DNA of 64,000 nucleotides, from the NCBI GenBank assembly GCA_937891975.1, contig CALAUA010000015.1, positions 145,378-209,377 on the forward strand. The letters run 5' to 3'. The notes beneath the pieces were generated by a model. That model worked only from the letters and a program-made list of their open reading frames with translations, did not search any database and had not been told where the DNA came from. Origin of the DNA: an uncultured Bacteroidales bacterium (GTDB lineage Bacteria; Bacteroidota; Bacteroidia; Bacteroidales; Paludibacteraceae). Both the position numbers and the translations under genes were made by a program. Each line of letters begins with the position of its first letter. Position 1 is the stretch's first letter. Shown in pieces: positions 2,812-59,159 of the stretch.

Positions 2812-2851
2812 ATATCTCTAAACTCTAAACACTAAACACTAAACTCTAAAC
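2812..2851. repeat. Heptamer word array NCTAAAC (B-word) filling a gene junction
   Basis: tctctaaactctaaacactaaacactaaactctaaacact spans the whole gap between the upstream stop (2846-2848, inside the array) and the downstream start (2811). Confidence 0.9.
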
Positions 2852-3808
2852 ACTCCTCGCAAGCAGCTTCTCCGCCATTTGGCGCAGCTGTTCAGTAGCG
2901 GCATTTTGTGGCAGTGTATCTAGTATTTGCAAGGCTTTCTTGGTGTAATCTGCCACCACTTGTTCACATATCTCGCGCACGCCCAATTGCTCAAAAATCT
3001 CTTTTACGCGTGCAATCTTCTCTTTGTTGTCATCCAGCAATTTTCCATACCAATCTTCCAACTCTTCTCTTGCCTCTAGGCTTATCGCCTCATCACCTAA
3101 TAGCCTCATCGCCTGTAGATATACAAACGTCTTCTTGTTGCAGGCAATATCTCCACCTATGGCTTTACCAAAAGTCTTTGGGTCGCCCCATACATCCAAT
3201 ATGTCATCTTGTATCTGGAAAGCCAGTCCGATGTTGATACCGAACTGATATAGTGCTCTTTGTTCTTCTTCGGTTGCTCCAGCGATGTAGGCTCCTATCT
3301 GCAATGCATTGGCTAGTAATACCGATGTTTTTAGGCGAATCATCATCAGGTATTCATCGATGCTCACATTGTTTTCCTGTTCGAAGTCCACATCATATTG
3401 TTGTCCTTCGCAGATTTCGGTAGCCATCTGGTTAAATAGTTGCAGTACGCGCGCGAGCGTGTGTGTGGGTACCTTACTTAATTGTGTATAAGCTTCTATC
3501 ATCATCTGGTCGCCAGAGAGGATAGCGGTATTTTCGTTCCATTGTATGTGTACTGTTGGACGTCCGCGACGCACTTCTGCTTTGTCCATCACGTCATCGT
3601 GAAGTAGAGTGAAGTTGTGAAAAATCTCTAGTGCCAATGCTGCAGGCAATACGTCTTCATCTTTACCGCCGAACATTTGGCTAGCTATGATTGCCAACTG
3701 CGGACGCACACGCTTACCGCCTGCTGCTAATGTGTAGGCGATTGGTGCGTATAAGCCCTTGGGCTCACGATCCCAATTGAGTTGTAATATCTTGCTATTA
3801 ATATCCAT
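2846..3808 (-). CDS. Polyprenyl diphosphate synthase (trans-isoprenyl, IspB/GGPPS-like)
   Basis: ORF trimmed to MDINSK at 3808. Both Asp-rich motifs are present: LLHDDVMD and QIQDDILD. Confidence 0.85.
   Translation of the reverse strand: MDINSKILQLNWDREPKGLYAPIAYTLAAGGKRVRPQLAIIASQMFGGKDEDVLPAALALEIFHNFTLLHDDVMDKAEVRRGRPTVHIQWNENTAILSGDQMMIEAYTQLSKVPTHTLARVLQLFNQMATEICEGQQYDVDFEQENNVSIDEYLMMIRLKTSVLLANALQIGAYIAGATEEEQRALYQFGINIGLAFQIQDDILDVWGDPKTFGKAIGGDIACNKKTFVYLQAMRLLGDEAISLEAREELEDWYGKLLDDNKEKIARVKEIFEQLGVREICEQVVADYTKKALQILDTLPQNAATEQLRQMAEKLLARSV
3083..3114. repeat. Octamer word TCGCCTCA (A-word) inside the polyprenyl synthase CDS
   Basis: cttatcgcctcatcacctaatagcctcatcgcc, read in frame as MRLLGDEAIS. 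Confidence 0.8.
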
Positions 3809-3840
3809 ATCTCTAAACACTAAACTCGAAACACTAAACG
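3809..3840. repeat. B-word array filling the ddl / polyprenyl synthase junction
   Basis: atctctaaacactaaactcgaaacactaaacg. The ddl stop (3834-3836) lies inside it. Confidence 0.9.
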
Positions 3841-4955
3841 GTGAAATTGTCTTCCACAATTTCACTAAGCACCTGACCAATATTCAATCCTGCTGCGCGT
3901 ATTTGCTGCGGAATAAACGATGTTGCAGTCATACCTGGTGTAGTATTCACTTCTAGCAGATTAATTGTCCATCCTCCCTCTTCGCCTAATCGCCTCATCG
4001 CCTCATCGCCCTCTCGCCTCATCGCCTCATCGCCTGTCAATATATAATCCACGCGAATGATTCCCTTACATCCTAGTATATCGTATATTTTCAGTGTCAG
4101 AGCTTGCACCTCATCGCGCACGCTATCGGGGATACGTGCAGGGGTGATTTCTTCTACTTGTCCGTTGTATTTCGCATCGTAGTCAAAGAACTCGTTGCTT
4201 GTCACCACTTCGGTGATGGGAAAAGCTACGGCTTTGTTTTTAGTCTTGTACACACCGCATGTGATTTCTATGCCCTTCATCTCTGCCTCGCAAATCACCT
4301 CGTCGCCTTCGCCAAAGGCTTTTTCTATCGCGGGTACCACATCTTCCAGAGTCTTCACTTTGGTTACGCCAAACGACGACCCACCTACATTTGTTTTGAT
4401 AAAACATGGCAATCCTACTTGCTTAATAATATCTTCGCCTATCGCCTCATCGCCTAATTGCCTCATCGCCTCTTTGCGCAGCAAAACACTCTCCGCCACA
4501 TTCACACCAAATCCCTTCAGGTACTGGTTGCAGGTGTATTTGTTGAACGTCATGGCTGCAGCCAATACGCCGCAACAGGAGTAGGGTACTCCCACCATGT
4601 CCAAGTATCCTTGCAGCACACCGTTCTCGCCGGGTGTGCCGTGGATAGTGATATATGCAAAGTCAAATTGTATTTTTTCGCCCTTGTAGGTGTATGAGAA
4701 GTCGTTTTTGTCGATATCCACCCACTTTTCAGATTCTATAGGCACGGCACCATTGTGCTTTTCTATCTCTATATTGGTTTCCGCCAATGCGCGCCACTCT
4801 TTCCCACGCAAACAAACAATGGTCAAATCATAGTCATGCCTTGACTCCTGACTTGCGATTTCCGATAAAAACGAGTAGATCCCTGCTGCGCTGCGTAACG
4901 ACACTTCGTATTCCGAACTGTCCCCACCTGCTATGATAGCTATTTTGCGACGCAT
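3834..4955 (-). CDS. ddl: D-alanine--D-alanine ligase
   Basis: ORF trimmed to MRRKIAIIAGGDSSEYEVSLRSA at 4955, because the longer ORF would overlap the tRNA. ATP-grasp motifs: FIKTNVGGSSFGV, LEVNTTPGMT. Confidence 0.9.
   Translation of the reverse strand: MRRKIAIIAGGDSSEYEVSLRSAAGIYSFLSEIASQESRHDYDLTIVCLRGKEWRALAETNIEIEKHNGAVPIESEKWVDIDKNDFSYTYKGEKIQFDFAYITIHGTPGENGVLQGYLDMVGVPYSCCGVLAAAMTFNKYTCNQYLKGFGVNVAESVLLRKEAMRQLGDEAIGEDIIKQVGLPCFIKTNVGGSSFGVTKVKTLEDVVPAIEKAFGEGDEVICEAEMKGIEITCGVYKTKNKAVAFPITEVVTSNEFFDYDAKYNGQVEEITPARIPDSVRDEVQALTLKIYDILGCKGIIRVDYILTGDEAMRREGDEAMRRLGEEGGWTINLLEVNTTPGMTATSFIPQQIRAAGLNIGQVLSEIVEDNFTV
3981..4036. repeat. Seven tandem A-word octamers inside ddl
   Basis: ttcgcctaatcgcctcatcgcctcatcgccctctcgcctcatcgcctcatcgcctg encodes GDEAMRREGDEAMRRLGEE. 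Confidence 0.9.
4434..4473. repeat. Second A-word array inside ddl
   Basis: cttcgcctatcgcctcatcgcctaattgcctcatcgcctc encodes EAMRQLGDEAIGED. Confidence 0.85.
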
Positions 4956-4972
4956 AAGAAGTAAGAATTTTG

Positions 4973-5043
4973 TTGCCAAACTAGGACTCGAACCCAGACA
5001 GACAGAACCAGAATCTGTAGTGCTACCATTACACCATTTGGCA
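4973..5043 (-). tRNA. tRNA-Gln (anticodon CTG)
   Basis: The reverse complement folds as a cloverleaf. Acceptor TGCCAAA/TTTGGCA, anticodon stem ACAGA/TCTGT with loop TTCTGGT, T-arm GGGTTCGAGTCC. CCA is not encoded. Confidence 0.85.
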
Positions 5044-5087
5044 GTGATTATGTCTTCGTAAGACGCATGTCTTTCTCAAATCGGGCA

Positions 5088-5177
5088 CAAAATTACTGCT
5101 TTTTTATTACATATGCAAATAAATTTCACTTTTTTCGTCAAAATATTTGCGTGATTGCAAAAAAAGCAGTAATTTTG
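5088..5177. promoter_or_regulatory. Divergent promoter pair for tRNA-Gln and rplS
   Basis: CAAAATTA at 5088-5095 (minus) and TAATTTTG at 5170-5177 (plus). Both sit in the inverted copies aaaattactgctttttt / aaaaaagcagtaatttt. Confidence 0.55.
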
Positions 5178-5866: not shown

Positions 5867-8800
5867 TTACAAGCGATGTCCCTGCGCGTCGAAAATGCCC
5901 TCCGCGGTACGGATGATGAGCTTACCGTCGATGAGGTATTTCTCAATGCCTTTCGCCTCATCGCCTACATTACCCACTCCTGTGGTCACATCCTTCTGTG
6001 GTTGGATATGGAGCGCAAAGCGATTCTCGTAACTACCAGCAGACAGAGTAATGGTATAATCGTCGAGCAAGAGGTTAGTGCGTGTATTTGTCTCGTAGTC
6101 AATGAGTTCTACCACCATACCCTCTGTGCCGTCAGGCATACGGAAGGTGTACTCACCTTCGGTGGCAATCTTCACGCCAACAGGCACGATAACCTCTTCC
6201 ATTGGTAATGTGTTACCCGCAAATGGGATGCCTTCAGACAATGTATAGATATTAGGTTTGCCGCTATTGAATACTTTGTTGAGGTCTTTGTTTTGGTCGA
6301 AGGTCGTTGTACCATCTTCATCTAAAGCTACAAATGTTTGGTCTTGCTTTTCGCCTTCTGTATTGGCAAGTTCGAGGCGCATGGTTACAGATGAACGTTC
6401 TGCTTGTGCTCTGCGAGGTGCCGCCAATGGTTCAGGCACCGTTTCATTGATAGGGTTCCAAGTAATAGTACCTGCAAACTGCACCATATAGCCGTAGAAG
6501 GATTTGTAGGTAGCAGTCTTACCATCTTCAGGAGTATAGTTATAACTTGTTCGGTTATTATTGTTGTCAAAAGTATAACTATATTGATAACGGAAACTTG
6601 GTGCTTCAGTTAATTCTTTATATTCTGGATCATTATCTTTATCATATTCTTTCACAGTCGCATTATTGTAACTGGTAGTACCAATCATCTTCCAGTTGCT
6701 ATCTTGCAAGTAGCGATTATGGAGAGTAAGAGTACATGGATGATTTGGGTAAGTGACAGTAAGTTGTTGCGTTGACTGCTGCTGCAAATCAAATCCACTA
6801 CCGATAGATGGGAAGTAGAGACGTAGCATAGAGATTATTTCTTTTTGTCCTTCTATAACATCGCCATTTGCATCAGTCTTATCCACTTCTATCTCATTCC
6901 ATGTGGCATTTTTCTTGTCAAATGCGAGCAGATATCCTTCACCTGCCTTCAACGTGTCCTTAGGAGACATCCACTCCCAGAATGTTGCCGTCTCTGCATA
7001 CCAACCCTTTTGAGCGCGAAGGTCACCGCGATAGCGTTGAATACCCCATAATTCCATATAACCATGCACACCAGATATACTACCTACCACGCAGTCAAAT
7101 GGTAAAGTGAACATATATTGCTCTTCATGACGTTCGTCTTCATTTGTACTACCACGGTGCAATTCCATTGCAAAGAATAGACTCTTTAAATTATTAATTT
7201 CACCATTGCCAGATAGTGTAATCTGTGGTACATTTTCATTCTCCTTGCGGATGAAAAGTACATCCGCATTTACTGTTTTATCTGTAGTAATAGTTAAGTC
7301 TGTTGCTATTTCCCAAACAGCTATGATTCGGTTCGTTTTGAAATCATACACTACGCGCACTTTATATACGCCATTATCCGTGCCCGAACCAATAACCGTT
7401 TTCTGAATAGGTGTGCTAGTTTCTTCGCCAGTTACTTCATTGATGCCGTAGCCCAATAAGTGGTTATACACAGTAGTATCAGTACGAGGTGATTTGGCTT
7501 CTACATACAGAGAAGCAGAAGGTGTTCCGTTGGTAATATTTACGTAAACATCTCGCTCATATACCCAGTTGCTGACATCGCGGAATTTATTGCCGTCATT
7601 ATTAGTATTGTTTCCGTATGGTAATTTTTTTGTACATTCCTTATCTGCATATGCATTGTCACAATGCAAATTGAGATAGCTTGCGTCTGCACTACCTTGC
7701 AGAACAGCTCGGCCGAAATAGTTGGTACGTGGGTCATAACCGAAGCGTACATTGATAACTTTACCTGTACCAACCTTGATATCGCCATATTCATTAGTAT
7801 TCTTATCTTGCAACAATTTGCCAGCTAGGTCATCGTTGTAGTCGTTTGCCACGCAGGCACTTACATCTTTACCATCGTAACCTCCAGAGTTCATAGCTTG
7901 TACCCAATAGTGGTTGTAGAACTCACCTTCGCGTGAAACAAATTCAGTGAATGTGCGGCTAGCTTTTTCGGAGTCTGTCCAATCATGAATAGAGTTCCAA
8001 CCCTTGTTGCTGATATCGCCATCTGTACCCCATGTACGGATGTAGAAGTTACCTGAATAAACTGCTACATTGGTAAGACCTGTACCATCTGCATTAAGTT
8101 TTGCTGTATAGACGTTTGACGCTGTGAATGTTTCAGGTGCGATTGTTGCATGCAAATTGCCGTTCTTATACAACATGACTACACCTGAACGGTAATTAAC
8201 TTCATCTTTACCAGGAGCAAAGAATGAGAGAATATCAGAGGTGCTGGTGACTATATTAGAAGAATACTCCTTACCATTTTGCATGACTATCTTCACTTGG
8301 TATTCATCTGCATCCTCCCAGCAATAATCGCCAGAACGTGAAATGGAAGGTTGATTCCCATATCCTTCATTTTTCATCGTATAACATCCATCTGTACTAA
8401 CATCTTTTACATCTGGTGATTTGCGCCAATTGTCATTCATGTTTTCATAAAACACCAAGAAACTTGTTTTTCCGTTAGTGTGTAATGGCACTTCCGCTTG
8501 TAGATATTTATACTTTCCAGACTCCTCATACACAAATTCCAATGCAATATCTGCATTATAACCAGAACTATACCAATAGTGTATCTTAATTTCGGAATTA
8601 TTGTTCCAACCAATATTGTCATATGTTCCTCCATCTGCTATTGGCACCTTCACTTGAATAGTGATGTGCGTATCTTTTTCTACGGTTACTTGGAATTTTT
8701 TGGTAACAGTTTCCTCGTGCAATGTGTAGTTCACAGTGATGGTGGTTGTGCCATCTTCGTGACCATATACGATGATGTTGGTTCCTGACATGATAGCTGT

Positions 8801-11800
8801 TGCAACAGTCGTGTTGGCGCTGCTAACTGTAGCTGTCACATCGCTCAGTTTATTACCCAAACTTACTTGTATAGAAGGTGAAACTATTTTTTGCTCGCCC
8901 TGTGTAAGAGTGATATTGTCAATATTACTTACTGCCAAATCACCAGGGCAATCGGCATTGGTAAGTGTGTAGTTGTTATATCCATTTTGATTAACCTTGT
9001 TATTACTTAATTGATAACATGTATTTTCACTTGGTATCTCGTAGTTGAAGGTTTGATTTGCATCGCTTCCGCCGTTTACGATAAAGTGGTCGTAGTATGG
9101 GTATTTCACCACGAATACGCGCCATGTACCAAAGTGTTGAGCAAAACTCTCACCAGGCCATTCGGTCTTCACATCTGCTGCACCAGCGTCGTCTCCGCGC
9201 CACATATATACATTGCTCAATATGCTATTGGGATCGTTGACCTTGATAGTGACTAATTTATAAACAGCCACTTCGGTACGTACCTCAAATACACGTCCTG
9301 CCACTTCTTCGGTTGTAGCGGTGAAGGTCAAGATACCTACTTGTTGAGCAGGTGTGTATTCGGTTGCATATTTTTCATTATAGGTTGTTGTTAATGTGGT
9401 TTCGTTAACCTTGATAGTTACGTTTCCAGTGTAACCATTGTAGGTGGCACTATATGATACTTCTACGTTGGTTCCTTGTTGTACTTTCTCTAAACTGATT
9501 TCGTCTCCAGGGGTGGTCAAAAGTACCATTTCAGGTGTCAAGACTTGTTGGAAGTAAACCGTGGTGGTAGCTTCGGTTCCCTTCTTTCCGTAAGAGTCTT
9601 TGTAGTAGGTGGTGATAGTGATAGGAGTAACCTCGGTGGTGATGTTCGTTAGGTCAAACGTATTGGCTGTTTGCTCTGTCTCACCTACTTTGTAGTAGGC
9701 AGTCAATCCTGCTACTTCTGTCAGTGGGGTTACTGTCAATCTTACCGTTTCATCGTTGTATAATTGGTAAGGGGTAGCTTGCGCTCCATCGCCTGCAATC
9801 CATTCATTGATTGTCTGCTCCTTATATACGCGCACTGCGGTGTATGTGACTGCAGGTGTTGTTGGTAGAGCGGGGTAGGTGATCTTCACTTGTGGTGCGG
9901 TCAAGGATATACCATCTGCTCCAGACCAACGGATATGAATGGTGTATGAACCTGCTTGCGTTGATTTGAATTTGATTGCGGAATTGGCATCTTTCCAAAT
10001 CTTTACCCAGTCAGCACATGATTGAAGGGCGCTGACAGAATTGCCGTATTCCGCAGAATTATTTGCATAGTCTTTTACTTTGAAACTGTATTCGGTATTT
10101 GCAGCCAAAGTAACGATGCATGCCCAACTGCCATCGCCTTGCTTGGTGAAATATGGATTGTTGCCAGGGAGGGTGTTGGTAGCATGTTTGCTAATCAATT
10201 GGTATCTCTCTGAGAAGGTCGCAACGAGTAATCCATCGCCTATTGTACCATTACCGCTAAGGGTGGTAGTATTGCCTGTGGTAGCAGAACTTACTGCAGG
10301 AGCAGTTGCAGTCCAACTTTGTGTATAATAACCCTCAGCAGGAGTTGCGGTAACAGTAACGGTGGTTTCCACACCCACACTTGCCTCTTGTGGTGATACT
10401 GTTCCCTTGTTATCATCGGATGATTTGATGTCAATAGAGGCTTTGTTTTCAACAAATACTGCTTTCACAGTTACATCCGCATTCACAGTGCAGGTGTAAG
10501 ATGGATCAGTCGATAATTGATTACCACTCCCGTCTGTCCACTTAGAGAAAGTGTAACCAGTATTTGCTTCTTGTGTAAATACAACACTTTTTCCCTTTAA
10601 CACATAGTCGCCAGAAGTAATTGCAACTCCATCCACTTTGGCAGTAACAGTCTTACCCCCCGTCCCCTTACTAAAGGTTACTTTGTATGCCTCTGGATAG
10701 GTTACGGAGAGGTTTTTATTAGAACTGTTGAATGTGAAAGTATAATTGCCTGCGACATCGGTTTTAAGAGTTAAATTATTGCTGCTTGTGCTTAATGTCT
10801 TACTTGACGATGCACGCGTAAGATCTCCACTGCTTGCACCATACCACTCTGAATCATATACAATCTTGAAAGTATATGTGGTGTTCGCGTTTAGGCTACG
10901 AGTGACAGTATAAGTACCCGAGCCAGTCATGTCAAATTCACCTGTATTAGTTGCGTCTGCTGGATTTGCAGCTGATATACGCAATTGATTATATACAGGC
11001 CATGTGACTTCTAAAGTTGGCTTTGAAGAATCATCATAGTTGAGGTGGAAAGTATATTTACCTGCTAGATAAGGCTTAAAGCGTATGTTGTTACTAGCGC
11101 TGGTGGAAAGCGTGAGGTTATTGTTCTCTTTGGTTAGCCAATAATGATCACCACCAGATCCCCAACCTAACCATTTTTTATTGTCATCGGAGCCTGCTGC
11201 ATTATAAATTTTAAATTCCCATTGATTGTCATTAGGAGTTACTTTACTTTGAGGGACATCAATTTCCCAATAAACATCATTAGAATTCGCGTTCCCAGAA
11301 TGCTTTTTCATCATTGTATTTTGATTAGCATTCCATCCTTCAGAAAAAGGTCCAGCATTATCACCTTGTACGTAGTATGTACTTGTTAAATCTTCTGCAT
11401 AATTTGCAACGACTTCAGCAGCTTTGCTATCGCCATTAGAGCGAACAGTGATGTTTGTTGCATCAGCTGCTCCGCCATCGGTGCGGGTACAATTGGTAAG
11501 CGTCCAACCTGTAAAAGTGTAGCCATTGCCTGCTGCAGTAGCTGTGACTGTGGCTGTGGTTTCATAACCTATTGAATTTACTGATGCTGTTGGAACTGCA
11601 TAGCCAGGGTCGCCTGCATCGTATTTATTGGAGGTTGTCAGCGTGGACATGTTTTCCGTAGCAGAAGCAGTCACTATAACCGAACCATTTTTTACGGTTA
11701 CGGTTGTGTTTGCTGTTGTTGCGTTGCCGAATGTAGCGTTTGCTGCTGGATTAGCAGTCCAAGTGCTGAAAGTGTAACCCGTTTTAGGTGTGGCTGTGAT

Positions 11801-12904
11801 ATTGTAGGTGCTTCCTAATGTTACAGGGTCAGTAGAACCACCAACGGTGTTTATTCCATCGCCTGCCAGTACGGTCAAGGAGTGGGTTGCTGTTGAGCGG
11901 AAGTTGGCTTTCAATGTACCTGCGGCAGTTGCAGTGATGGTTGTAGAAGCAGCTGTCGTATTTGCTACAACAACACCTCCTGTAGCTGTCCAATTAACAA
12001 ATTCGTAATTTGCATCTGGAGTGGCAGTGACTGCCGTCGTTGTGACTTGTCCAATAGTCTTATTTCCTAAAGGAGATACTGTTCCGCCAGAGCCTGCTGA
12101 GATAGTGACAGCATATGTATTCTCTGTCCAAATAGGAGTAATTGTTACATTGCTGGTAAGTGTATAGGTTTGAGAAGCGATGTCTGCTGCAGCAATAGTA
12201 GTAGTTGTACTACCATTATTGATTTGTACACCGCCAAAGGTATATCCTGTAGAGGCAGATGCGCTGAATTTAAGAACAGTGAGGTGAATTTTGCTTGCAC
12301 CAGTAGCAATAGTGTTGTTGTCGTAGTCCTTTACGGTTAGTGTGCCACCTGTAGGGCTATTGATTGTGACAGTATAGTCTGATTTAGTAGAAGTAGACCA
12401 ATTGTATACAGTACACTTCGTATCAAAGTGCGTAACTGAAGTAGTCCCATTTGCCTTATAAATTGTAGTTGCGTTCCAAACAGATGTGCGAATATTTGTC
12501 ACATTATTGTTGCCATGGTACACAAATTTATATACATTTTCACCGTTAGAGTCCCACCATTTCTCTTTGCTGACTACCCAACCTGATGCTCCATCCCATG
12601 AATTTCCATTATTCCATCCTTTTGCCAATTTCCAAAGGTACTGTGTACCAGAAACACGAGTCATGGCATAGCAAGATGTATGAGAATCATGACCGATATA
12701 AACGTAACAGTTCGTCCATTTTGATGTGGAGTTATCAAAGTATAAATCCACATTTGATTGGTTGATAGCCGCCCACGCATTACTAACTCCCATTAGTAGG
12801 AGAATGAGGATAGCAGTTGTTCGTATACCTTTGGTATATCCTTGTAATAGGTTAAGAAATTGTTTCGCCTTCTTCTCGGCGCAATTTGTAAATGTTTTAT
12901 TCAT
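5867..12904 (-). CDS. Giant cell-surface protein with divergent InlB B-repeat modules and a T9SS-like C-terminal tail
   Basis: Uninterrupted 2345-aa ORF. Leader MNKTFTNCAEKKAKQFLNLLQGYTKGIRTTAILILLLMGVSNAWA. Many ~75-aa modules of type Y.VT....GGTVSP.......TATP..GY.F..WT. Tail ends KYLIDGKLIIRTAEGIFDAQGHRL. Confidence 0.85.
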   Translation of the reverse strand: MNKTFTNCAEKKAKQFLNLLQGYTKGIRTTAILILLLMGVSNAWAAINQSNVDLYFDNSTSKWTNCYVYIGHDSHTSCYAMTRVSGTQYLWKLAKGWNNGNSWDGASGWVVSKEKWWDSNGENVYKFVYHGNNNVTNIRTSVWNATTIYKANGTTSVTHFDTKCTVYNWSTSTKSDYTVTINSPTGGTLTVKDYDNNTIATGASKIHLTVLKFSASASTGYTFGGVQINNGSTTTTIAAADIASQTYTLTSNVTITPIWTENTYAVTISAGSGGTVSPLGNKTIGQVTTTAVTATPDANYEFVNWTATGGVVVANTTAASTTITATAAGTLKANFRSTATHSLTVLAGDGINTVGGSTDPVTLGSTYNITATPKTGYTFSTWTANPAANATFGNATTANTTVTVKNGSVIVTASATENMSTLTTSNKYDAGDPGYAVPTASVNSIGYETTATVTATAAGNGYTFTGWTLTNCTRTDGGAADATNITVRSNGDSKAAEVVANYAEDLTSTYYVQGDNAGPFSEGWNANQNTMMKKHSGNANSNDVYWEIDVPQSKVTPNDNQWEFKIYNAAGSDDNKKWLGWGSGGDHYWLTKENNNLTLSTSASNNIRFKPYLAGKYTFHLNYDDSSKPTLEVTWPVYNQLRISAANPADATNTGEFDMTGSGTYTVTRSLNANTTYTFKIVYDSEWYGASSGDLTRASSSKTLSTSSNNLTLKTDVAGNYTFTFNSSNKNLSVTYPEAYKVTFSKGTGGKTVTAKVDGVAITSGDYVLKGKSVVFTQEANTGYTFSKWTDGSGNQLSTDPSYTCTVNADVTVKAVFVENKASIDIKSSDDNKGTVSPQEASVGVETTVTVTATPAEGYYTQSWTATAPAVSSATTGNTTTLSGNGTIGDGLLVATFSERYQLISKHATNTLPGNNPYFTKQGDGSWACIVTLAANTEYSFKVKDYANNSAEYGNSVSALQSCADWVKIWKDANSAIKFKSTQAGSYTIHIRWSGADGISLTAPQVKITYPALPTTPAVTYTAVRVYKEQTINEWIAGDGAQATPYQLYNDETVRLTVTPLTEVAGLTAYYKVGETEQTANTFDLTNITTEVTPITITTYYKDSYGKKGTEATTTVYFQQVLTPEMVLLTTPGDEISLEKVQQGTNVEVSYSATYNGYTGNVTIKVNETTLTTTYNEKYATEYTPAQQVGILTFTATTEEVAGRVFEVRTEVAVYKLVTIKVNDPNSILSNVYMWRGDDAGAADVKTEWPGESFAQHFGTWRVFVVKYPYYDHFIVNGGSDANQTFNYEIPSENTCYQLSNNKVNQNGYNNYTLTNADCPGDLAVSNIDNITLTQGEQKIVSPSIQVSLGNKLSDVTATVSSANTTVATAIMSGTNIIVYGHEDGTTTITVNYTLHEETVTKKFQVTVEKDTHITIQVKVPIADGGTYDNIGWNNNSEIKIHYWYSSGYNADIALEFVYEESGKYKYLQAEVPLHTNGKTSFLVFYENMNDNWRKSPDVKDVSTDGCYTMKNEGYGNQPSISRSGDYCWEDADEYQVKIVMQNGKEYSSNIVTSTSDILSFFAPGKDEVNYRSGVVMLYKNGNLHATIAPETFTASNVYTAKLNADGTGLTNVAVYSGNFYIRTWGTDGDISNKGWNSIHDWTDSEKASRTFTEFVSREGEFYNHYWVQAMNSGGYDGKDVSACVANDYNDDLAGKLLQDKNTNEYGDIKVGTGKVINVRFGYDPRTNYFGRAVLQGSADASYLNLHCDNAYADKECTKKLPYGNNTNNDGNKFRDVSNWVYERDVYVNITNGTPSASLYVEAKSPRTDTTVYNHLLGYGINEVTGEETSTPIQKTVIGSGTDNGVYKVRVVYDFKTNRIIAVWEIATDLTITTDKTVNADVLFIRKENENVPQITLSGNGEINNLKSLFFAMELHRGSTNEDERHEEQYMFTLPFDCVVGSISGVHGYMELWGIQRYRGDLRAQKGWYAETATFWEWMSPKDTLKAGEGYLLAFDKKNATWNEIEVDKTDANGDVIEGQKEIISMLRLYFPSIGSGFDLQQQSTQQLTVTYPNHPCTLTLHNRYLQDSNWKMIGTTSYNNATVKEYDKDNDPEYKELTEAPSFRYQYSYTFDNNNNRTSYNYTPEDGKTATYKSFYGYMVQFAGTITWNPINETVPEPLAAPRRAQAERSSVTMRLELANTEGEKQDQTFVALDEDGTTTFDQNKDLNKVFNSGKPNIYTLSEGIPFAGNTLPMEEVIVPVGVKIATEGEYTFRMPDGTEGMVVELIDYETNTRTNLLLDDYTITLSAGSYENRFALHIQPQKDVTTGVGNVGDEAKGIEKYLIDGKLIIRTAEGIFDAQGHRL

Positions 12905-14189: not shown

Positions 14190-14260
14190 AAATTCCTGAA
14201 AATCCCTATATTCCCGTTTCCCTAATTATCCTTTTCTACTTTTGCAAAGCTCTTGCTTTA

Positions 14261-14303
14261 CTATGTCATTACTATGTCATTACTATGTGATTACTATGTT
14301 ATT
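14261..14303. repeat. 11-nt word array CTATGTCATTA, four copies
   Basis: ctatgtcattactatgtcattactatgtgattactatgttatt. Confidence 0.9.
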
Positions 14304-14328
14304 CCGCTACCCTTGCGCTACCTTTACG

Positions 14329-14486
14329 CTATCTTCAGGGTATCTTCAGGGTATCTTCGGGACATCCTATATATATCCCTTATACATCCCTTGGTTATCC
14401 TATGCTGCTCCTTCGGTGAGGTTCCGATGAGATTCCAATCAGGTTCCGATGAGGTTCCGATGGAAGTAAGGGGCATGTAAGGGGCA
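14329..14486. repeat. Composite repeat, left copy (inverted partner at 18699-18834)
   Basis: Three GTATCTTCRGG units, then a ~45-nt unique core (gacatcctatatatatccc..ggttatcctat), a variable 11-nt word module (GAGGTTCCGAT), then ggaagtaaggggcatgtaaggggca. Confidence 0.85.
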
Positions 14487-14490
14487 AATA

Positions 14491-18680: not shown

Positions 18681-18698
18681 TTAGGTTGGCCCTTGTAT

Positions 18699-18834
18699 TG
18701 CCCCTTACATGCCCCTTACTTCCATAGGGACTTCATAGGGACTTCGCCGAAGAATCAGTATAGGATAACCAAGGGATGTATAAAGGATATATATAGGATG
18801 TCCCGAAGATACCCTGAAGATACCCCGAAGATAG
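18699..18834. repeat. Composite repeat, right copy (inverted partner of 14329-14486)
   Basis: Same ends and unique core as the left copy. The internal word module is GAAGTCCCTAT instead of GAGGTTCCGAT. Ends 70 nt upstream of the giant gene 2 start. Confidence 0.85.
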
Positions 18835-18903: not shown

Positions 18904-21900
18904 ATGAATACAACATTTACAAATTACGCCGAGAAGAAGGCGAAACAAATTCTTAATCTATTACAAGGCTATACCAAAGGTATACGAATAACTGCCATCC
19001 TCATTCTCCTACTCATGGGAGTTAGTAATGCGTGGGCGTGGACAGCGCACTTTTCTCTTATGGGCGATCCTGTTGGTAATAATTGGCAGAATGATCGAGA
19101 TTTCATGATTAACACAAGTACAGGAACTACGGACGAGTGGTATATCTATGCATATGTAGCAAATAATCAATATTTTGCTTTAAACAATGGAAGTAATCAG
19201 TACGGACCTTCAAGCAACGGTCAGGCTATAAAAAACGGCACAGGTGGAGGTCAGGGCAATTATAATACAAATTCATGGAAATTCACAGGAACTAGTGGAA
19301 TCATAAAGATTTGCTGTGCGGAAAGTAATGACCGTGAATGGTATCCATGGGTATGGGTAGAAGAATCCGCACCAACTATCAAATTTAAACATCCATGGAA
19401 TGGTGGTAGTTGGAGTGAACAAACAGCAACAAAACAAAATGACGGGACATATACCTACGATGGTAAATATGGAAATAACAAAGGCTTTAATGCAGGTCCT
19501 TCTGGTAAGTACAAATATAACGCAAGTCAAACAACCGTAGAAGGTTCACCCGCTACAGGAGATATGTGTAGATTTATTTGGAATCCTGTTGGTTATGTAC
19601 AAGGAGGAGCAGAAACAAAAGCATCTGGAACATTTAAAATTGTTAAACTTTGTTCGCTCACCTATGATGGCAATGGAAAAACAGGAGGAACAGTACCTTC
19701 TGCTACTAACAACCAACTATATAACACATCTATTACATTATCATCCGAAACTTTAACTAAGGCTGGTTATACACATACTGGTTGGAATACCAAAGCAGAT
19801 GGCACAGGAACCCATTATGACAAAGGAGCATCCTACACATTAACAGCAGCGAGTACCACTCTCTATGCAGAATGGACATCTACCGCTCCTACCATAACCA
19901 TTTCTACTGAAAAAACATACTTAAGAACAGCTTATGATAAATTAATTTTAAAGATTTATTACTCAAATATCCCAGAAGGATATACTTATCGTGTCCATGC
20001 AACTCCAGAGGCTTACTTCAATGGTAATGAGAATGGGGATAATGTTGATCGGGTGAGTATTTCAGGTAATGGAAACACTACTTTTGTATCTAATGGATAT
20101 CTTGCCCAGAATCAATATACTGTAGAAGTGATATTATGGAATAATGGTGGTGCAACAGATATAATATCAAATTCCCTTTCCATCACGGTAGAACCTCAAT
20201 TATCTGTTCAAACACGAGCTCGTTTTAATAATCAAATAAACACAACTGCCGCAGAGCACCCACAACCAGAATGGGTACATCCTTCGCAGAATGTAGGAGA
20301 AACAATTACAGCTAGCGAACCGAAACCAGGTTATACATTTGCGGGTTGGACTGCTAATGATGATAACCTTATTAAGTTTGATAATCCTAATTCACTTACA
20401 ACTATTGTTAAATCGAAAGTAAATGGTAATAACAATGCAGTGGCTTACGCCAACTATACCCGTGTAGAAACCTATGCCTTTATACAAGGTCGTTTTCGTG
20501 TGAATAGTGCATCACGAAATCAGATGACATATACTTATGATGATGGTGGTCAATGGAACGAAGGGAGCACTAATATCCAAATGGAATATGATGATACAAA
20601 CTCACGTTTCTATCTTCACACATATATGAAGCCTAAAGAGCTAACAGAGCCCCATGGTACTAATTGTGGTGAATGTAAGCCTTATTTTTATATTAAAACA
20701 AGTACCTCTAGTAGTTCTCTTACGAATGCTACACCATATTGGTCTTCATCCAAACAATATATAATAGAAGCGGGAAAAGAGAACAAAAAGGAATTAACGA
20801 ATTCTTCTAGCAATGTGGTTAACAATAACTTACGCTTTAACACTCAAGATGAATCAGGTTATGTAATATTATATTTCGATCAACAATACATCTGGTATGA
20901 GTTGGAGCATAGATTAGAATACGATGCCAACGGTGGTACAGGTAGTGCACCAAGCAGAACGTATCATCTTAAAGGTTCCACAACTACTACCGCTTCGGAC
21001 AACATATTCACTCGTGACGGCTATGATTTCCAGGGTTGGAACACCAAAGCAGATGGTACGGGCAATCAGTATGAGGCAGAAGCAAACATTACGATAGAGG
21101 CAAACACAACTCTCTACGCACAATGGGCAAAACCAACATTCACCGTTACACTAGACCCACAGGGTGGTACAGACGGAACTACTTCTGTTGAAGCAACTTA
21201 TGGAGAAGAAATGCCCGAAGCAACGATGCCTCAGCGTGAGGGATTTACTTTTGGCGGATATTTCACAGAGACTAATGGCGGTGGCACTCAGTATTACAAT
21301 GCTGATGGCTCTAGTACGAAGAATTGGGATATCAAAGAACCTAAAACCCTCTACGCCAAATGGATACAACAATATGTGATTGTGGGTAATGGTAAAGGTA
21401 GTTGGCTGAATGGTGCTAACTGGATAGAAAGTGTGATAGCAGATGATAGCTTTGACGTTACCAAGCAGTCAAGCAATATTATTGATGGTAGTGTTACCTA
21501 CTCTGCTTGTCCTGCTGGACTGAAGAACTTCCGCATTGTGCCATGGGGTAAATGGGATACAAATCATGGTAAAGAGCAGCTAACTAGTTGCAATGTACCT
21601 TCCTACACCAATGAAGACAATAATATTGCGTTCGTAACTGTGGCGGAAGCTGCCATCACAATCGGATTTGATGGCACGAATATTACAGTACAAGTAGATT
21701 ATGATGCTGAAGATTTAGCCAATGTAAAAGCCGAAGTCGTCGCAGACACAAAACGAATGTTCTATTTTGGAGACGAGTTAACAGATCGATCAAGGCAGTA
21801 TTTATACGTTAATGAACTTGAAAATAGCACAGATAACCACGTTGTTACAGAAACGAAAGGATTACTTTTAGAAGGTGTAGGTGCACAAAAGTGGCTAGCT

Positions 21901-24900
21901 GTGGCGATACTGCCTCCTAAGACATATAACATTTCTAATGATGCTAACTGGGGAGGTGTTTCTACAGGTGAAGTTGTTCAAGCGGGTGCAATATATGCAT
22001 GGCACGGCAATCAAGTGATGGTAAAAACAGCAGGCACCCCGCCGACATTAGGAGATGTAAGCATTAGAGTAGGAAGAGCCAACTCTGGATTAACTGCATC
22101 TGCTGGCGGCTCCTCTATCGGACAGGCACAAACCATCACCGATTACTACTATAAAAAGGAGGGTGAGAGTACTTGGACTAAGTTTGACCCGAATAACGTA
22201 AGTGCTTTGCCAGTAGGTATATACAAGGTACACGCGCTCGCACACGATGGCAATATCTACGTGCGCACCGCAGAACCTGCTACTTTGACGATATATGACG
22301 ATTACACCATCACCTATAAAGATCAAGGCGGTAGTGCTTTCACTGGTGCACACGAAGCTGGTTGTCCTGCTATACACCTCTACGGACAGACAACTGAACT
22401 GAAATCAGCAACCAAAACTGGTTATGAGTTTGGCGGTTGGTTTACAAGTCCAGATTGTACAGGCGAACCTATCACTACACTTGGAGCAACAGATTATACT
22501 GCAGACATTACCCTCTACGCTAAGTGGACTGCCAAGACTTATCCCGTTACCCTTGACCAAACTGGTGCAAAAACACCAGGAACTCCCTCTGTAACTGCTA
22601 CTTATTATGCTGCAATGCCTCACATAGAAACTCTACCTACTCCAAAAGATGGCTATGCATTTGCAGGATATTACGACCAAAAAGATGGCGCAGGTACACA
22701 ATATTATGACGCAGAGGGCGCGAGCGCGCACGTGTGGGATAAGGCAAATGATGGTATTCTCTATGCAAAATGGGAGGCAATCACTTACACCATCACTTAT
22801 CATCTCAACGGTGGAAGTGGCGCCGCAAACAGCACTTACACCATCGAATCTGAGGATATTATCTTACCAACCCCTACTAAAGCAGGTCACACCTTTGGCG
22901 GTTGGTATGACAACGAAGGTTGTACAGGAGAAGCTATTACCAAGATAGCTCAAGGTTCTACTGGCCACAAAGAGTATTGGGCAAAGTGGACAATCAATAG
23001 TTATACCATCCTCTTTGGTACAGAAGATGGCGGAACTGTAAGTGCTACTGTAGGTGGGAATGCAATCAGTAGTGGTACTTCACTTACGTATGGTACACAA
23101 GTTCAATTGACTGCCACTCCCGAACCTGGGTATTCTTTCAGCGAATGGACAAATGGTAGTGGCAATGAGGTTTCTACATCCAATCCTTATACAGTGACCA
23201 TAGACGGCAATATCACCCGAAATGCTGTCTTTATTGAAGCGACTACCCTGTATCTCAAACCAAACGCTGATTGGCTGAAAGACGGTGCACGCTTCGCTGC
23301 GTATGCATTTGATGGAGGAGAGGCAACTTGGTATGATATGGAAGAAGTGGGATGTTCTGGTATTTATTCATGTGCCATTCCGGGAAGTTATAATAAGGTT
23401 ATTTTTGGGCGCATGAATCCAAACAAAACGGAGAATAATTTTGATAATGAAGTAAGATGGGAACAGACCATTGATTTAAGTATTCCAACAGATGGTACTA
23501 ATTTATTCACTGTCACAAACAAGCCAGTAGGAAGCAACTGGAATGGTGAATGGGAATCCGAGCCATTTAATCCTCTAGCATATACTATTACGCTGGAAGG
23601 TGAAGGTGGTACGATAGAAATCACACATGAAGGTGGTACAGCTACGGAGAATACTACTGTAGCACCCAATACCATCATCACCGTTGCTCTTTACCCTCAT
23701 AGCGGTTACACGGTAGGTACACCTAAAATAAAGATTGGTTCCAATGCTGCAGCTAACTTGGTAGTAGGGCAAAAATATACTATTTGCGGACCTACTACGA
23801 TTACCGCTAATTGGGTTGAAACGAAATATGCTGTAGCAGTTAATTCAAACAATAATACTTACGGAACGGTAAGTCCAAGCTCTGTACAAGTGGGACAATA
23901 CACTCCTTCTCAGAAGATTACTGCTACGCCGAAAGCTGGTTATCGTTTTGTGAATTGGACAGCCACCGAAGGTGTGTCAATCAATTCCCCAATCTTTGAA
24001 TCCACCACCATCACTGCTTCCCAAGCAGGTACACTAACCGCCAACTTCGAAAAAGACCCTACCGTTTACCTCAAGCCAAGTGCTGTTTGGAAAAAAGATG
24101 GTGCACGTTTTGCAGTGTATTGGTGGAAGGATACAAAGAACGGTTGGATAGATATGACCACTGTCGGCTGTAACGACGAATATTATACAGCCGAATTGCC
24201 TGCAGGAGTTACGAATTTTAAGTTTGTTAGGTTAAAACCTAGTGGTGGGCATGCTTTTAGCAATGCATGGGATCAGACTATAGATCTTACCTTGCCAACT
24301 AACGCCAACAACCTATTTGCAATGAAAAAATTGCATCTCAATATAGGAGAATGGAATAAAGATAATCAGAAATGTTATGCGGCACACTTCTACAATTCAT
24401 CAAATGAAAGTAAGACCATTAATTTGACCGAAGGTAATGATCCGATGGTTTATTACTGCGATATACCAACGGATAAACATTATACGAATGTTGTGTTCTA
24501 TCGTGTGAATCCTAGTAATACTGGAGAAATATGGCATCAAACAAATGACCTGACTATAGACGGCGATTTCTACACGATTACCTCATTCGGTGGAGATGGT
24601 AACAAAGCAGAAGGTACTTGGACGTTACAGAGTATAGGTGAATGGTTGGCGTTGCCGTTGCCTACTATCACCTACACTCAACCAGAGAATGGTACGATTA
24701 TCGTTAAGACCATACGAGGTGTGGAAATACCTAGCGGAACAAAAGTTCCATGGGATACGCAAGTCCTCGTGTCGGTACAACCGAATACAGGATATTCTGT
24801 TGAATATGCTAATATCGATATTGGTGGTACACAGCATGATGTTCAATCGGGTACACCTTACACCATCTGCGGAAATACAACTATCTCTGCTACCATGGAA

Positions 24901-27897: not shown

Positions 27898-27922
27898 GAT
27901 TGCTGCCCAAAAACCTCGCTGA

Positions 27923-27968
27923 AGGTTAAAGGTTAAAGGCGAGAGGTTAGAGGTTAGAGGCGAGGATA
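27923..27968. repeat. Heptamer word array GGTTAAA/GGTTAGA/GGCGAGA (F-word)
   Basis: aggttaaaggttaaaggcgagaggttagaggttagaggcgagg, just 3' of the giant gene 2 stop. Confidence 0.9.
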
Positions 27969-27971
27969 AGA

Positions 27972-28006
27972 AAAATGAGTTGGACACCAATCCAACTCAT
28001 TTTTTA
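27972..28006 (+). terminator. Rho-independent terminator of giant gene 2
   Basis: Perfect 10-bp stem atgagttgga/tccaactcat, 6-nt loop, then TTTTT. Confidence 0.8.
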
Positions 28007-28016
28007 CATTCCAGCC

Positions 28017-28114
28017 TTTACACTTTACACCCTACACTTTACACCTTACACTTTACACCTTACACCCTACACCCTACACTTTACACCTTACACTCTACAC
28101 CTTACACCCTACAC
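28017..28114. repeat. Fourteen tandem heptamers YYTACAC (C-word)
   Basis: tttacac tttacac cctacac tttacac cttacac ..., an uninterrupted 7-nt phase that continues into a B-word unit tctaaac. Confidence 0.95.
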
Positions 28115-28151
28115 TCTAAACAGTAGCCCACATCGTGGGCGTTCACTAAAC
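28114..28151. repeat. B-word / GC-hairpin / B-word composite element (copy 1)
   Basis: ctctaaacagta-gcccac-atc-gtgggc-gttcactaaac. Confidence 0.8.
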
Positions 28152-32844: not shown

Positions 32845-32884
32845 AAAAATGCACTTTTTTTTGAGAAAAGTGCATCTTTTTGTT
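32845..32884 (-). terminator. Hairpin terminator downstream of the WYL gene (possibly bidirectional)
   Basis: atgcactttt / aaaagtgcat stem flanked by A-run and T-run. Confidence 0.6.
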
Positions 32885-32915
32885 TAGTGTTTAGAGTTTA
32901 GTGTTTAGAGGCTGG
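32881..32915. repeat. B-word array
   Basis: tgtttagtgtttagagtttagtgtttagaggctggg. The ending ttagaggctggg recurs at 62868-62880. Confidence 0.9.
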
Positions 32916-33831: not shown

Positions 33832-33841
33832 ATTGTGTGTT

Positions 33842-33870
33842 GAGTGTTTAGAGTTTAGTGTTTAGTGATT
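33842..33870. repeat. B-word array at the U32 / WYL junction
   Basis: gagtgtttagagtttagtgtttagtgatt. The U32 stop (33855-33857) is inside the array. Confidence 0.9.
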
Positions 33871-35650: not shown

Positions 35651-35683
35651 AGTTGACAATTGACAGTTTACAGTTGACAGTTA
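35651..35683. repeat. GACAGTT/GACAATT word array at the trmH-like / U32 junction
   Basis: agttgacaattgacagtttacagttgacagtta. Includes the upstream stop codon. Confidence 0.85.
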
Positions 35684-53475: not shown

Positions 53476-53509
53476 CTATCTTCGGGGTATCTTCGGGATA
53501 TCTTCAGGA
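53476..53509. repeat. 11-nt word array GTATCTTCGGG (H-word) at the rsmI / flippase junction
   Basis: ctatcttcggggtatcttcgggatatcttcagga. The same word opens the composite repeats at 14329 and 18834. Confidence 0.9.
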
Positions 53510-53513
53510 TAAA

Positions 53514-54236: not shown

Positions 54237-55025
54237 TTACGCGAAGCGTCTCTTGAGTACGTTCTCGAAGAGTTGTACTGCGGTGGACTCTTTGTCCCAA
54301 TCGAAGTTGTCGAGCACGTAGTCCATCGCCTCGTTGAGTGAACCGAGATTGTTAATTTCATCCAATGTTTTTTGCATCAACTCACCATTGCCTGCAAAGA
54401 GTTCGCGTTGAAAGAGGAAACGGTCCCCCAAAGAGATAGCTTGGCGGATATCCTCTACTGCCGCACCAAACAACGATGTTTGTTGTGGCACAGGACGTGG
54501 AGCAGGTTGTGGAGCAGGTGCTGGCTCTACCACTGGCTCTGCCTTTACTTCTGGTTGTGGAGCAGGTTCCACGATTGGTTCCACCACTGGCTCTGCCGTT
54601 GCTTCTGGTTGTGGAGCAGGTGCTGGCGCTACAACTGGTTCTTCTACAACCGGTGCTTCTACCTCTGGAGTATCTATAATATCCAGCGTTTCTAGTTCTT
54701 CTTTAACTTCCTCTTGTGGTTTTTCTGCGGGCTCTTCAGCGAACTCGTTTTCAATTGTCACCTCTTCGTTTTCACTTTCAGTTTCTTCTTCAACGATGAG
54801 TTCGATCTCTACTTCTGGTTCTGCAGCTTGTGCAGCTACAGCACCTGTAGCTGCCAATGCAGCCACTTCGGCTTGCAAGGTTGCTATTAGGGCTTTCGCC
54901 TCATCGCCTTCTCGCCTCATTGCCTCATTGGCTTCTTCGAGTTGCGCCACACGCGCCTCCAGAGCAGAGAGTTTCTGCTCCAGAGCGGTCGTGTAGTTGG
55001 TTATTGCTTGAATAAGATTGTTCAT
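54237..55025 (-). CDS. Hypothetical protein: coiled coil + acidic / Pro-rich EPVVEP repeats + C-terminal globular domain
   Basis: 262-aa ORF. Low-complexity centre PAPAPQPEATAEPVVEPIVEPAPQPEVKAEPVVEPAPAPQPAP. Confidence 0.5.
   Translation of the reverse strand: MNNLIQAITNYTTALEQKLSALEARVAQLEEANEAMRREGDEAKALIATLQAEVAALAATGAVAAQAAEPEVEIELIVEEETESENEEVTIENEFAEEPAEKPQEEVKEELETLDIIDTPEVEAPVVEEPVVAPAPAPQPEATAEPVVEPIVEPAPQPEVKAEPVVEPAPAPQPAPRPVPQQTSLFGAAVEDIRQAISLGDRFLFQRELFAGNGELMQKTLDEINNLGSLNEAMDYVLDNFDWDKESTAVQLFENVLKRRFA
54896..54932. repeat. A-word octamers inside the CDS
   Basis: ttcgcctcatcgccttctcgcctcattgcctcattgg encodes NEAMRREGDEAK. Confidence 0.8.
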
Positions 55026-59120: not shown

Positions 59121-59159
59121 ATCGGGAATCAGGAATCAGGAATCGGGACTCGGGAATCC
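59121..59159. repeat. E-word heptamer array at the lepB / wbqC-like junction
   Basis: atcgggaatcaggaatcaggaatcgggactcgggaatcc. Confidence 0.9.

Follow-up and report, generated by a model that had tools for sequence, protein, structure and literature searches.

How can the gene of an essential cell-wall enzyme carry tandem repeats with a unit length not divisible by three, and do such repeats form a switch? This question is raised by ddl, the gene for D-alanine--D-alanine ligase, in a 64-kb stretch of DNA (referred to as the window) from an uncultured member of the Paludibacteraceae. The gene lies on the minus strand at 3834-4955, starts with the ATG at 4955 and encodes 373 amino acids, and two arrays of an 8-nt word are translated within it. 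D-Ala-D-Ala ligase is needed for peptidoglycan synthesis and losing the sole ligase would be lethal; judging from this general knowledge, ddl is presumably essential in the present organism. The arrays are real, inserted, strain-variable, found only in frame, stop-avoiding and spread over the genome. They probably represent a slippage-prone long simple-sequence repeat that a permissive loop can tolerate and on which purifying selection acts as a filter, and not a contingency switch.

Using Tandem Repeats Finder, array A was detected at 3977-4035 (period 8, 7.4 copies, 86% matches) and array B at 4435-4472 (period 8, 4.9 copies). Together with the translation these results agree in coordinates, period, frame and peptide with a preliminary description of this DNA, which had placed the arrays at 3981-4036 and 4434-4473. 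When the units are also parsed, site A comprises seven GGCGA-type octamers in frame (3972-4034, minus strand), encoding residues 308-328 (GDEAMRREGDEAMRRLGEEGG) in the context ...VDYILT-GDEAMRREGDEAMRRLGEEGG-WTINLLEVNTTPG. On the sense strand the octamers read GGCGATGA GGCGATGA GGCGAGAG GGCGATGA GGCGATGA GGCGATTA GGCGAAGA, and the peptide falls into the modules GDEAMRRE-GDEAMRRL-GEEGG. The 24-nt or 8-residue super-period noted previously is thus borne out, as array A is made of two super-units of three octamers each and one more unit. Site B (4434-4475, minus strand; residues 161-174, KEAMRQLGDEAIGE) is a degenerate octamer array in the helical linker that precedes the GGSSFG loop and is translated as ...LLRK-EAMRQLGDEAIGE-DIIKQVGLPCFIKTNVGGSSFG. 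With up to one mismatch allowed, the 13-mer TCGCCTCATCGCC has 13 matches in the window and none in 100 dinucleotide-preserving shuffles. A hairpin or repetitive extragenic palindrome (REP)-like nature of the octamer array was also considered; this is ruled out by the missing inverted repeats and hairpins in the array and by a DNA folding energy no better than that of shuffled sequences (-2.1 kcal/mol, z = +0.97).

The arrangement of the units within the codons is not arbitrary. A run of three perfect GGCGATGA units would be translated as GGC GAT GAG GCG ATG AGG CGA TGA and thus end in a stop codon. Counted over all arrays with available DNA, GGCGATGA stands in codon phase 0 twelve times and in phase 2 nine times, and never in phase 1, where GGCGAGAG, GGCGATTA, GGCTATTA, GGTTAGA or GGCGAGA are present instead. 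In the DNA loci parsed, the unit that would give TGA is altered every time. Therefore, the absence of GGCGATGA from phase 1 indicates that the arrays are translated and selected to stay open. Perfect runs of period 8 extend to 21 nt (2.6 units) at most, and each third unit is degenerate.

For comparison with relatives, the best 120 Ddl proteins were used, which are 76-98% identical to the window protein, 336-478 amino acids long and include one from a Paludibacteraceae metagenome-assembled genome (MAG). At site A many of these relatives read VDYILT-EGW/ENW/DGW-TINLLEV and have no array, while more distant Bacteroidales have TGEQ or TEGEK at this position. The alignment to E. coli DdlB shows a 17-residue gap exactly here, between VDYILT and WTINLLEVNT. 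In an AlphaFold2 model the insert lies between strands 300-307 and 330-337, with a predicted local distance difference test (pLDDT) score below 50 at residues 315-327; since the mean pLDDT of this model is 68.6, it was used for the strand-insert-strand topology only. Alignment and model indicate that site A is a genuine insertion in what appears to be a permissive, solvent-facing β-hairpin turn. Despite the insert, all catalytic motifs of Ddl are kept.

Site B is of a different kind. It aligns to AEFEKGLSDKQLAE of E. coli DdlB without a large gap, and its EAMRRLGDEAIGE version has a constant length of 13 residues in all carriers at 76-98% identity. Other lineages have the cassettes AKGERLEVKGE, NQEPRTKSQ, RGGERREAK or hairpin-type elements at this site. 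As judged from these alignments, site B is an old, degenerate, stable and replaceable cassette and not an insertion relative to E. coli. Of the earlier view that both arrays are insertions, the part concerning array A is supported by the EGW-type relatives and the E. coli gap, whereas the part concerning array B is not. A third variable cassette site, site C, was found at 4836-4865 (minus strand; residues 31-40, SEIASQESRH), where two AGTCA(G/A)G-like units are present. At this site a short loop of the LDKEKY type is present in more distant relatives; other strains have KPTPTPSLKGRELD, GEEARGEEAKG or DPTDSPSRGE, with nested insertions, and between strains of 95-97% identity site C forms an indel block of 51 columns. 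The C-terminal tail of Ddl is variable in the alignment as well.

The length of site A, counted from VDYILT to INLLEV, was then compared among 118 related proteins. These contain 57 alleles of 24 different lengths, ranging from 4 to 66 residues; the value of 66 belongs to a single outlier with an internal duplication (P0108), and array-type alleles reach about 46 residues. Among the protein pairs that are at least 99% identical over the other 306 aligned columns, 65% differ in the length of site A, and identical backbones can carry different site A alleles, e.g. GDEARGEEGGWK and RLEAKGERLEARGEEAMRREAKGDEAMRLLGEEGEWK. The alleles are composed of 8-residue GDEAMRRE (3x8 nt), 7-residue AKGERRE (3x7 nt) and 5-residue AKGDE (7+8 nt) modules. 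Within the 90% identity cluster of the window protein, 12 of the 14 members listed have kept its length, one is 8 residues shorter and one has a different element.

The same picture is seen at the DNA level. Over 5.6 kb, the related locus L207 shares 97.0% identity with the window, and only two indels separate them. One comprises 24 nt, i.e. three octamers, in site A, the L207 allele being the shorter one; the other is a heptamer array just upstream of the start of the polyprenyl synthetase gene, which is 34 nt longer in L207. Locus L001 is 96.5% identical over 6.2 kb and has identical ddl arrays. Between L202, L204 and L206 (95-97% identity over 11 kb) all indels of more than 2 nt fall either within arrays of this sort or within small hairpin elements, as counted downstream of the ddl start codon, the divergent upstream region being left out. 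All observed length differences at site A are multiples of 3 nt. Two expectations of the preliminary description, variation in length among strains and in-frame change in steps of three units, thus hold: site A is polymorphic, the difference to L207 is exactly 24 nt and all alleles are in frame. In a strict test for an open frame from the N to the C terminus, 80 of 87 DNA loci passed, nine of these with GGCGA-type site A arrays; the other seven are from distant, array-less species that the search pattern missed, and here tblastn covers the protein from end to end.

A side observation concerns the DNA next to site A. Relative to L001, substitutions peak at 4000-4200, just 5' of site A on the sense strand, with 26 per 200 nt as compared to a window mean of about 6. 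This may reflect a recombination tract or a raised mutation rate next to the array.

The repeats are genome-wide and not specific to ddl; the preliminary description had overlooked that the same word and sister words occur elsewhere, in genes as well as in spacers. In the window, the octamer word is found at six loci. One is located in the polyprenyl synthetase gene downstream of ddl (3079-3113, minus strand), where it reads AMRLLGDEAIS; in relatives this site contains the cassettes EAMRRSGERAPQNASVFGDPA..., EAKRRGGERREGERLE or QLSTTLHHSTQLSTTLNH and is as variable as ddl site A. Another one is part of the open reading frame (ORF) 54237-55025 (array at 54894-54928, minus strand; period 8 and 4.1 copies in Tandem Repeats Finder) and reads EAMRREGDEAKA, and a short match is present in the paralogous C-termini of two giant proteins. 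At these places the word has the same sense orientation and reading (GDEA or EAMRR) as in ddl. A near-identical string of 30-33 nt, AGGCGATGAGGC-ATTAGG-GATGAGGCGATA, is common to ddl site B and the polyprenyl synthetase gene, and the lengths of the arrays are graded without fixed ends.

Arrays of period 7 are present in frame in the WbqC-like, flippase and peptidase U32 genes and also in spacers. A CTAAACA-type array at 3811-3839 (strand not assigned) extends into the ddl stop codon and takes up most of the spacer that precedes the polyprenyl synthetase start; this is the array that is 34 nt longer in L207, and it is 6 nt longer in L001 and has grown in L206 to about 200 nt of AGGTTAG, AGGTGAA and AAACTGA units. 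The next intergenic spacer is filled by a CTCTAAA / CACTAAA array (2816-2854, strand not assigned), which differs by 14 nt, i.e. two units, from that of L001. Furthermore, the words ACCAAGA, AAGGTTA and TCCCGAC of the window correspond to the cassettes NQEPRTKSQ, AKGERLEVKGE and DPTDSPSRGE that other strains have at ddl sites B or C. Altogether, 17 arrays of period 7, 8 or 11 were counted in the 64-kb window and none in 20 Markov simulations. Per 10 kb this amounts to 2.7 arrays in the window, 1.3-1.6 in related Paludibacteraceae MAGs, 0.27 in more distant Bacteroidales and 0 in the simulations; this clade comparison was made with Tandem Repeats Finder at a score threshold of 44, as a threshold of 30 is too noisy to separate the clades. 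It is therefore likely that the ddl repeats are members of a lineage-wide (A)GGCGA-NN(N) family with 7-8-nt units, residing in an otherwise ordinary, functional Ddl. The octamer word itself is not clade-specific. A metagenome scan for 2.6 units of GGCGATGA returned mostly perfect intergenic arrays from unrelated taxa with GC contents of 36-73%, and four low-GC loci that resemble the in-frame type.

Several observations on these repeats stand apart from the question of ddl. Heptamer arrays are found in most short spacers of the window (2816-2854, 3811-3839, 27922-28118, 32881-32910, 33837-33867, 35651-35682 and 59121-59158); they often abut start or stop codons, e.g. TTTAGTGTTTAGAG-AT-ATG at the polyprenyl synthetase start, and the longest one consists of 14 TTACACC units (28018-28114). 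The peptidase U32 gene (33855-35270) contains a GGTGTAG heptamer array at 35174-35200 and, at 34052-34133, 3.3 copies of a repeat with a 26-nt period and 13% indels, which is translated as PQGVQYPIAKRPLPNSPTGVQYPIGG. Outside this lineage, unrelated organisms often have perfect GGCGATGA arrays, with up to 9.6 units (L082-L161, above all in contigs of metagenome Ga0194060). One of these organisms, with a GC content of about 60-63%, carries the arrays as an intergenic repeat that is dispersed, has conserved flanks and recurs as ...RRSVSPHRLIASSQDC on the other strand.

How could the arrays have arisen and persisted? That slippage is the motor and that the peptide is neutral are both inferred from the patterns described above. 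The repeats would have colonised the hairpin turn at site A and the helical linker at site B, the first copy at each site being born locally or copied as a 24-33-nt cassette from another array. Array A would then change its length by slipped-strand mispairing or by unequal recombination between units. Because ddl is essential, only in-frame and stop-free products would survive, so that the net changes that remain are multiples of 3 nt (3x8 = 24, 3x7 = 21, 7+8 = 15) and GGCGATGA is kept out of the one codon phase in which CGA-TGA would arise. The resulting peptide (GDEAMRRE, AKGERRE, AKGDE or similar) would be a hydrophilic passenger without a dedicated function.

Several points weigh against slippage as the whole explanation. 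Identical backbones can carry unrelated sequences at site A, e.g. GDEAMRREARGEEGEWK and EKPTPTPSLKGRENGNWE, and at site B one word is replaced by another between strains; slippage alone is insufficient for either. The alternation of unrelated sequences at one site therefore requires dispersed-element insertion or short-tract recombination in addition. The string of about 30 nt shared by two genes hints at copying over independent growth. Five coding sites in the window count as independent, and in all of them the sense orientation is the same, although a stop-free peptide (SSPHRLIA) would also result from the antisense reading; the simplest account would be selection for a hydrophilic peptide, and with only five sites this bias is no more than suggestive. 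Alongside slippage, some copying from one locus to another, or recombination of short tracts among strains, must therefore be at work. Finally, no frameshifted ddl allele was seen in the 87 DNA loci or in about 150 called proteins, but intact genes are favoured in assemblies as well as in protein sets, so that this absence is weak evidence.

Small dispersed elements are also present in the clade. An element of about 36 nt, AAGCCTACCCCC-ACCCC-TCCCT-AAGGGAAGGGAG (AAGCCTACCCCCACCCCCTCCCTGAAGGGAAGGGAG; read as KPTPTPSLKGRE), occupies ddl site A in L204 and site C in L202. At site C of L206 another element, which forms a hairpin with a 9-bp stem (z = -4.6), is nested within it and divides it in two, and the APQNASVFGDPA element is nested in alleles of both ddl and the polyprenyl synthetase gene. 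As a separate observation, tiny in-frame translated elements share hot spots with the repeat arrays and differ between conspecific strains, also in the polyprenyl synthetase genes of L002 and L202-L206.

The alternative that best survives the comparison is that the octamer array is itself a miniature mobile cassette, i.e. a dispersed element of about 24-33 nt that spreads by trans transposition or ectopic gene conversion and is altered by slippage only afterwards. The elements just described are bona fide small dispersed elements that co-occur with the array, including one nested in both genes; furthermore, three genes of the window contain the same string, each time read in the same frame, and unrelated elements alternate at one site between near-identical strains. 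However, the octamer array has no inverted repeat or hairpin and apparently no fixed ends, its alleles resemble a graded series of unit numbers and no target-site duplication is evident. Among the window ORFs scanned with Pfam there is no transposase, RAYT-like gene or reverse transcriptase; the nearby ORFs gave only Bro-N and AAA_14/DUF4143. In addition, arrays of the word are present in many unrelated taxa, as would be the case for ordinary simple-sequence repeats. We consider a mobile cassette possible, though less probable than a slippage-prone repeat.

A broader version of this idea, which we regard as speculative and rather unlikely, is that a clade-specific active process seeds and exchanges cassettes of 7-8-nt units as well as tiny hairpin elements, in frame, in the loops of many housekeeping proteins and at strain-level rates. 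The agent might be a trans-acting enzyme or very short-tract recombination targeted to arrays. If this were true, there would be a proteome-wide "loop hypervariation" with ddl as one visible target, and the fixed orientation would result from the mechanism and not from peptide selection alone.

It is very unlikely that the variation is adaptive, with the loop being selected for diversity or function, such as escape from an inhibitor or toxin or a new interaction surface. The extreme allele diversity at a single surface hairpin and the consistent sense orientation, which yields a charged, helix-prone peptide, would fit such selection. Yet the site accepts sequences unrelated to one another, translated hairpin elements among them, and its size ranges from a turn of 3 residues to an insert of more than 40; intergenic spacers and other cytoplasmic enzymes behave in the same way, and the insert is modelled with low confidence. 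In addition, no partner or inhibitor is known, which also counts against an adaptive role.

The preliminary description had proposed that ddl is a potential frameshift-prone contingency site. In such a phase-variable locus, the gain or loss of a single octamer would toggle the gene as bet-hedging in cell-wall synthesis. Two features are what such a locus would show: the unit length is not divisible by three, and the array length is polymorphic among strains. This proposal is nevertheless extremely improbable. There is no out-of-frame allele among the DNA loci or called proteins, perfect runs do not exceed 2.6 units (21 nt) with every third unit degenerate, and the units that would give TGA are altered. 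Near-identical relatives keep the same array length, as seen in L001 and in 12 of the 14 listed members of the 90% cluster. Moreover, ddl is a single, syntenic housekeeping gene, the OFF state of the only ligase would from general knowledge be lethal, and the same arrays are present in other housekeeping genes. An assembly or sequencing artefact of MAGs in repetitive DNA can be dismissed as negligible, since, although all related sequences are metagenomic assemblies, the identical array is present in the independent sample L001 and the exact protein in three source collections, the arrays of at most about 140 nt are below or near the length of typical short reads (itself an estimate) and the alleles are always in frame, unlike an artefact.

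The genomic setting of ddl is that of a conserved housekeeping gene. The organism belongs to a group of uncultured Paludibacteraceae of herbivore guts (roe deer, sheep, cattle, yak). In the Ddl ORF, Pfam identifies Dala_Dala_lig_N (9.9e-20) and Dala_Dala_lig_C (3.6e-45), and the closest solved structure is E. coli DdlB (2DLN/1IOV, 1e-39). The window protein is present exactly as P0121 in the protein set, the same exact protein being found in the three source collections mentioned above. Immediately upstream of ddl, ARAGORN predicts a tRNA-Gln(CTG) gene (4972-5043, minus strand), and ddl in turn lies upstream of the polyprenyl synthetase gene (2846-3808, minus strand), which was assigned by Pfam. 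The order rplS, tRNA-Gln, ddl, polyprenyl synthetase is kept across relatives. A scan for promoters and terminators around ddl gave no signal above shuffled sequences. Many database Ddl entries of the clade (P0002, P0008, P0012 and others) have N-terminal extensions of 45 or 86 residues. These extensions (MCPIWKRHAS..., MLIARDYSRK...) are spurious, because the tRNA-Gln gene adjoins ddl upstream and the ORF calls read through it (4956-5100 in the window). They are thus annotation artefacts that inflate the apparent length variation of Ddl.

Further away from ddl, two giant paralogous ORFs were noted at 5867-12904 (minus strand, 2345 aa) and 18904-27897 (plus strand, 2997 aa), the C-terminal DNA of which is about 84% identical. 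Their counterparts in L001, L206 and L207 contain Pfam Flg_new and vary in length between strains from 1670 to 2382 aa. Between these two divergent genes lies a 4.2-kb segment with the Bro-N and AAA_14/DUF4143 genes, flanked by composite blocks of adjoining 11-nt repeats at 14258-14487 and 18698-18834, e.g. four copies of TTACTATGTCA, 2.6 copies of TATCTTCAGGG and four copies of TGAGGTTCCGA. One block is an inverted copy of the other, with 88% complementarity over 111 nt and 89% over 45 nt. The 11-nt word TATCTTCGGGA occurs again at 53477-53511 and in L002, and parts of the 4.2-kb segment are found elsewhere in L001.

Overall, non-triplet repeats can persist in the gene of an essential enzyme and turn over between strains with an otherwise identical protein, which requires selection that keeps only frame-preserving, stop-free combinations. 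It follows that intragenic repeats of this kind need not be phase-variation switches. As regards genome annotation, our results point to a family of gut Bacteroidales whose housekeeping proteins bear strain-specific translated junk in surface loops; this inflates the diversity of protein clusters, and the sites are ready-made strain markers. For protein engineering, naturally permissive insertion sites are mapped in Ddl and polyprenyl synthetase. The main interest lies in the strain-level turnover inside housekeeping proteins and in the question of what spreads the cassettes.

A comparison with known systems helps to place these repeats. Among the papers searched, none connects Paludibacteraceae with tandem repeats. 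Rickettsia palindromic elements (RPE) are selfish DNA of about 100-150 bp in frame within protein-coding genes, and the small dispersed repeats (SDR) of Nostoc are 21-27 nt long and nested. As in these families, short dispersed DNA is translated here as an extra surface peptide without destroying conserved proteins, and the hairpin elements that co-occur in the clade show nested insertions. The octamer array, however, is non-palindromic and has no hairpin. Its lengths form a graded series of unit numbers and seem to lack fixed ends, although ddl site B and the polyprenyl synthetase gene share the string of about 30 nt. In-frame insertion at the surface without inactivation is thus shared, but in view of the structural differences we do not file the present case under RPE or SDR. 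An active insertion mechanism, if there is one, would give the Bacteroidota an equivalent of the RPE of Rickettsia and the SDR of cyanobacteria. In-frame coding minisatellites and low-complexity loop expansions are similar in that a loop contains a duplicated super-unit of 24 nt (8 residues) and has strain-specific lengths. In contrast to these, the super-unit here consists of an 8-nt word in three copies; as this word is spread through non-coding DNA too, the driver is at the DNA and not at the protein level.

With the contingency loci of Haemophilus, Neisseria and Campylobacter, the ddl array has in common an intragenic unit that is not a multiple of three (period 8) and a copy number that varies between strains. 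Of the four features by which such loci are recognised, this type of unit is the only one found in ddl; a long perfect tract, the coexistence of ON and OFF alleles and a dispensable or conditionally advantageous gene are absent. No out-of-frame alleles were found, and the gene encodes a presumably essential cytoplasmic enzyme and not a surface, restriction-modification or LPS function.

The closest resemblance is to dispersed families of long simple-sequence repeats (LSSR). LSSR with units of 5-11 nt were surveyed by Mrazek et al. in 2007, as summarised in PMC4679880. Heptamer-type repeats are dispersed in scattered bacterial lineages, such as TAACTGA in Beggiatoaceae, Cyanobacteria and Bacteroidetes (PMC4679880) and GGGAATC / GGGGA(C/T)T in Xanthomonas and Nostoc (PMC4692102). 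Like these families and the cyanobacterial short tandemly repeated repetitive (STRR) sequences, the repeats described here consist of short tandem units of 5-11 nt, recur as the same word at many loci, are enriched in a lineage and vary in copy number between strains. Many of the arrays also abut start or stop codons in short spacers, in which they resemble the placement of the TAACTGA repeats; MacGregor et al. suggested that the latter might regulate translation (PMC4679880). Dispersed heptamer families are, however, mainly intergenic and under-represented in coding DNA (PMC4692102), and inside genes units in multiples of three are those expected (PMC4679880). A mainly intergenic location is the one LSSR feature that the present family lacks: its non-triplet units stand inside essential and housekeeping genes, combined as triplets or as 7+8 and with stop-avoiding variants.

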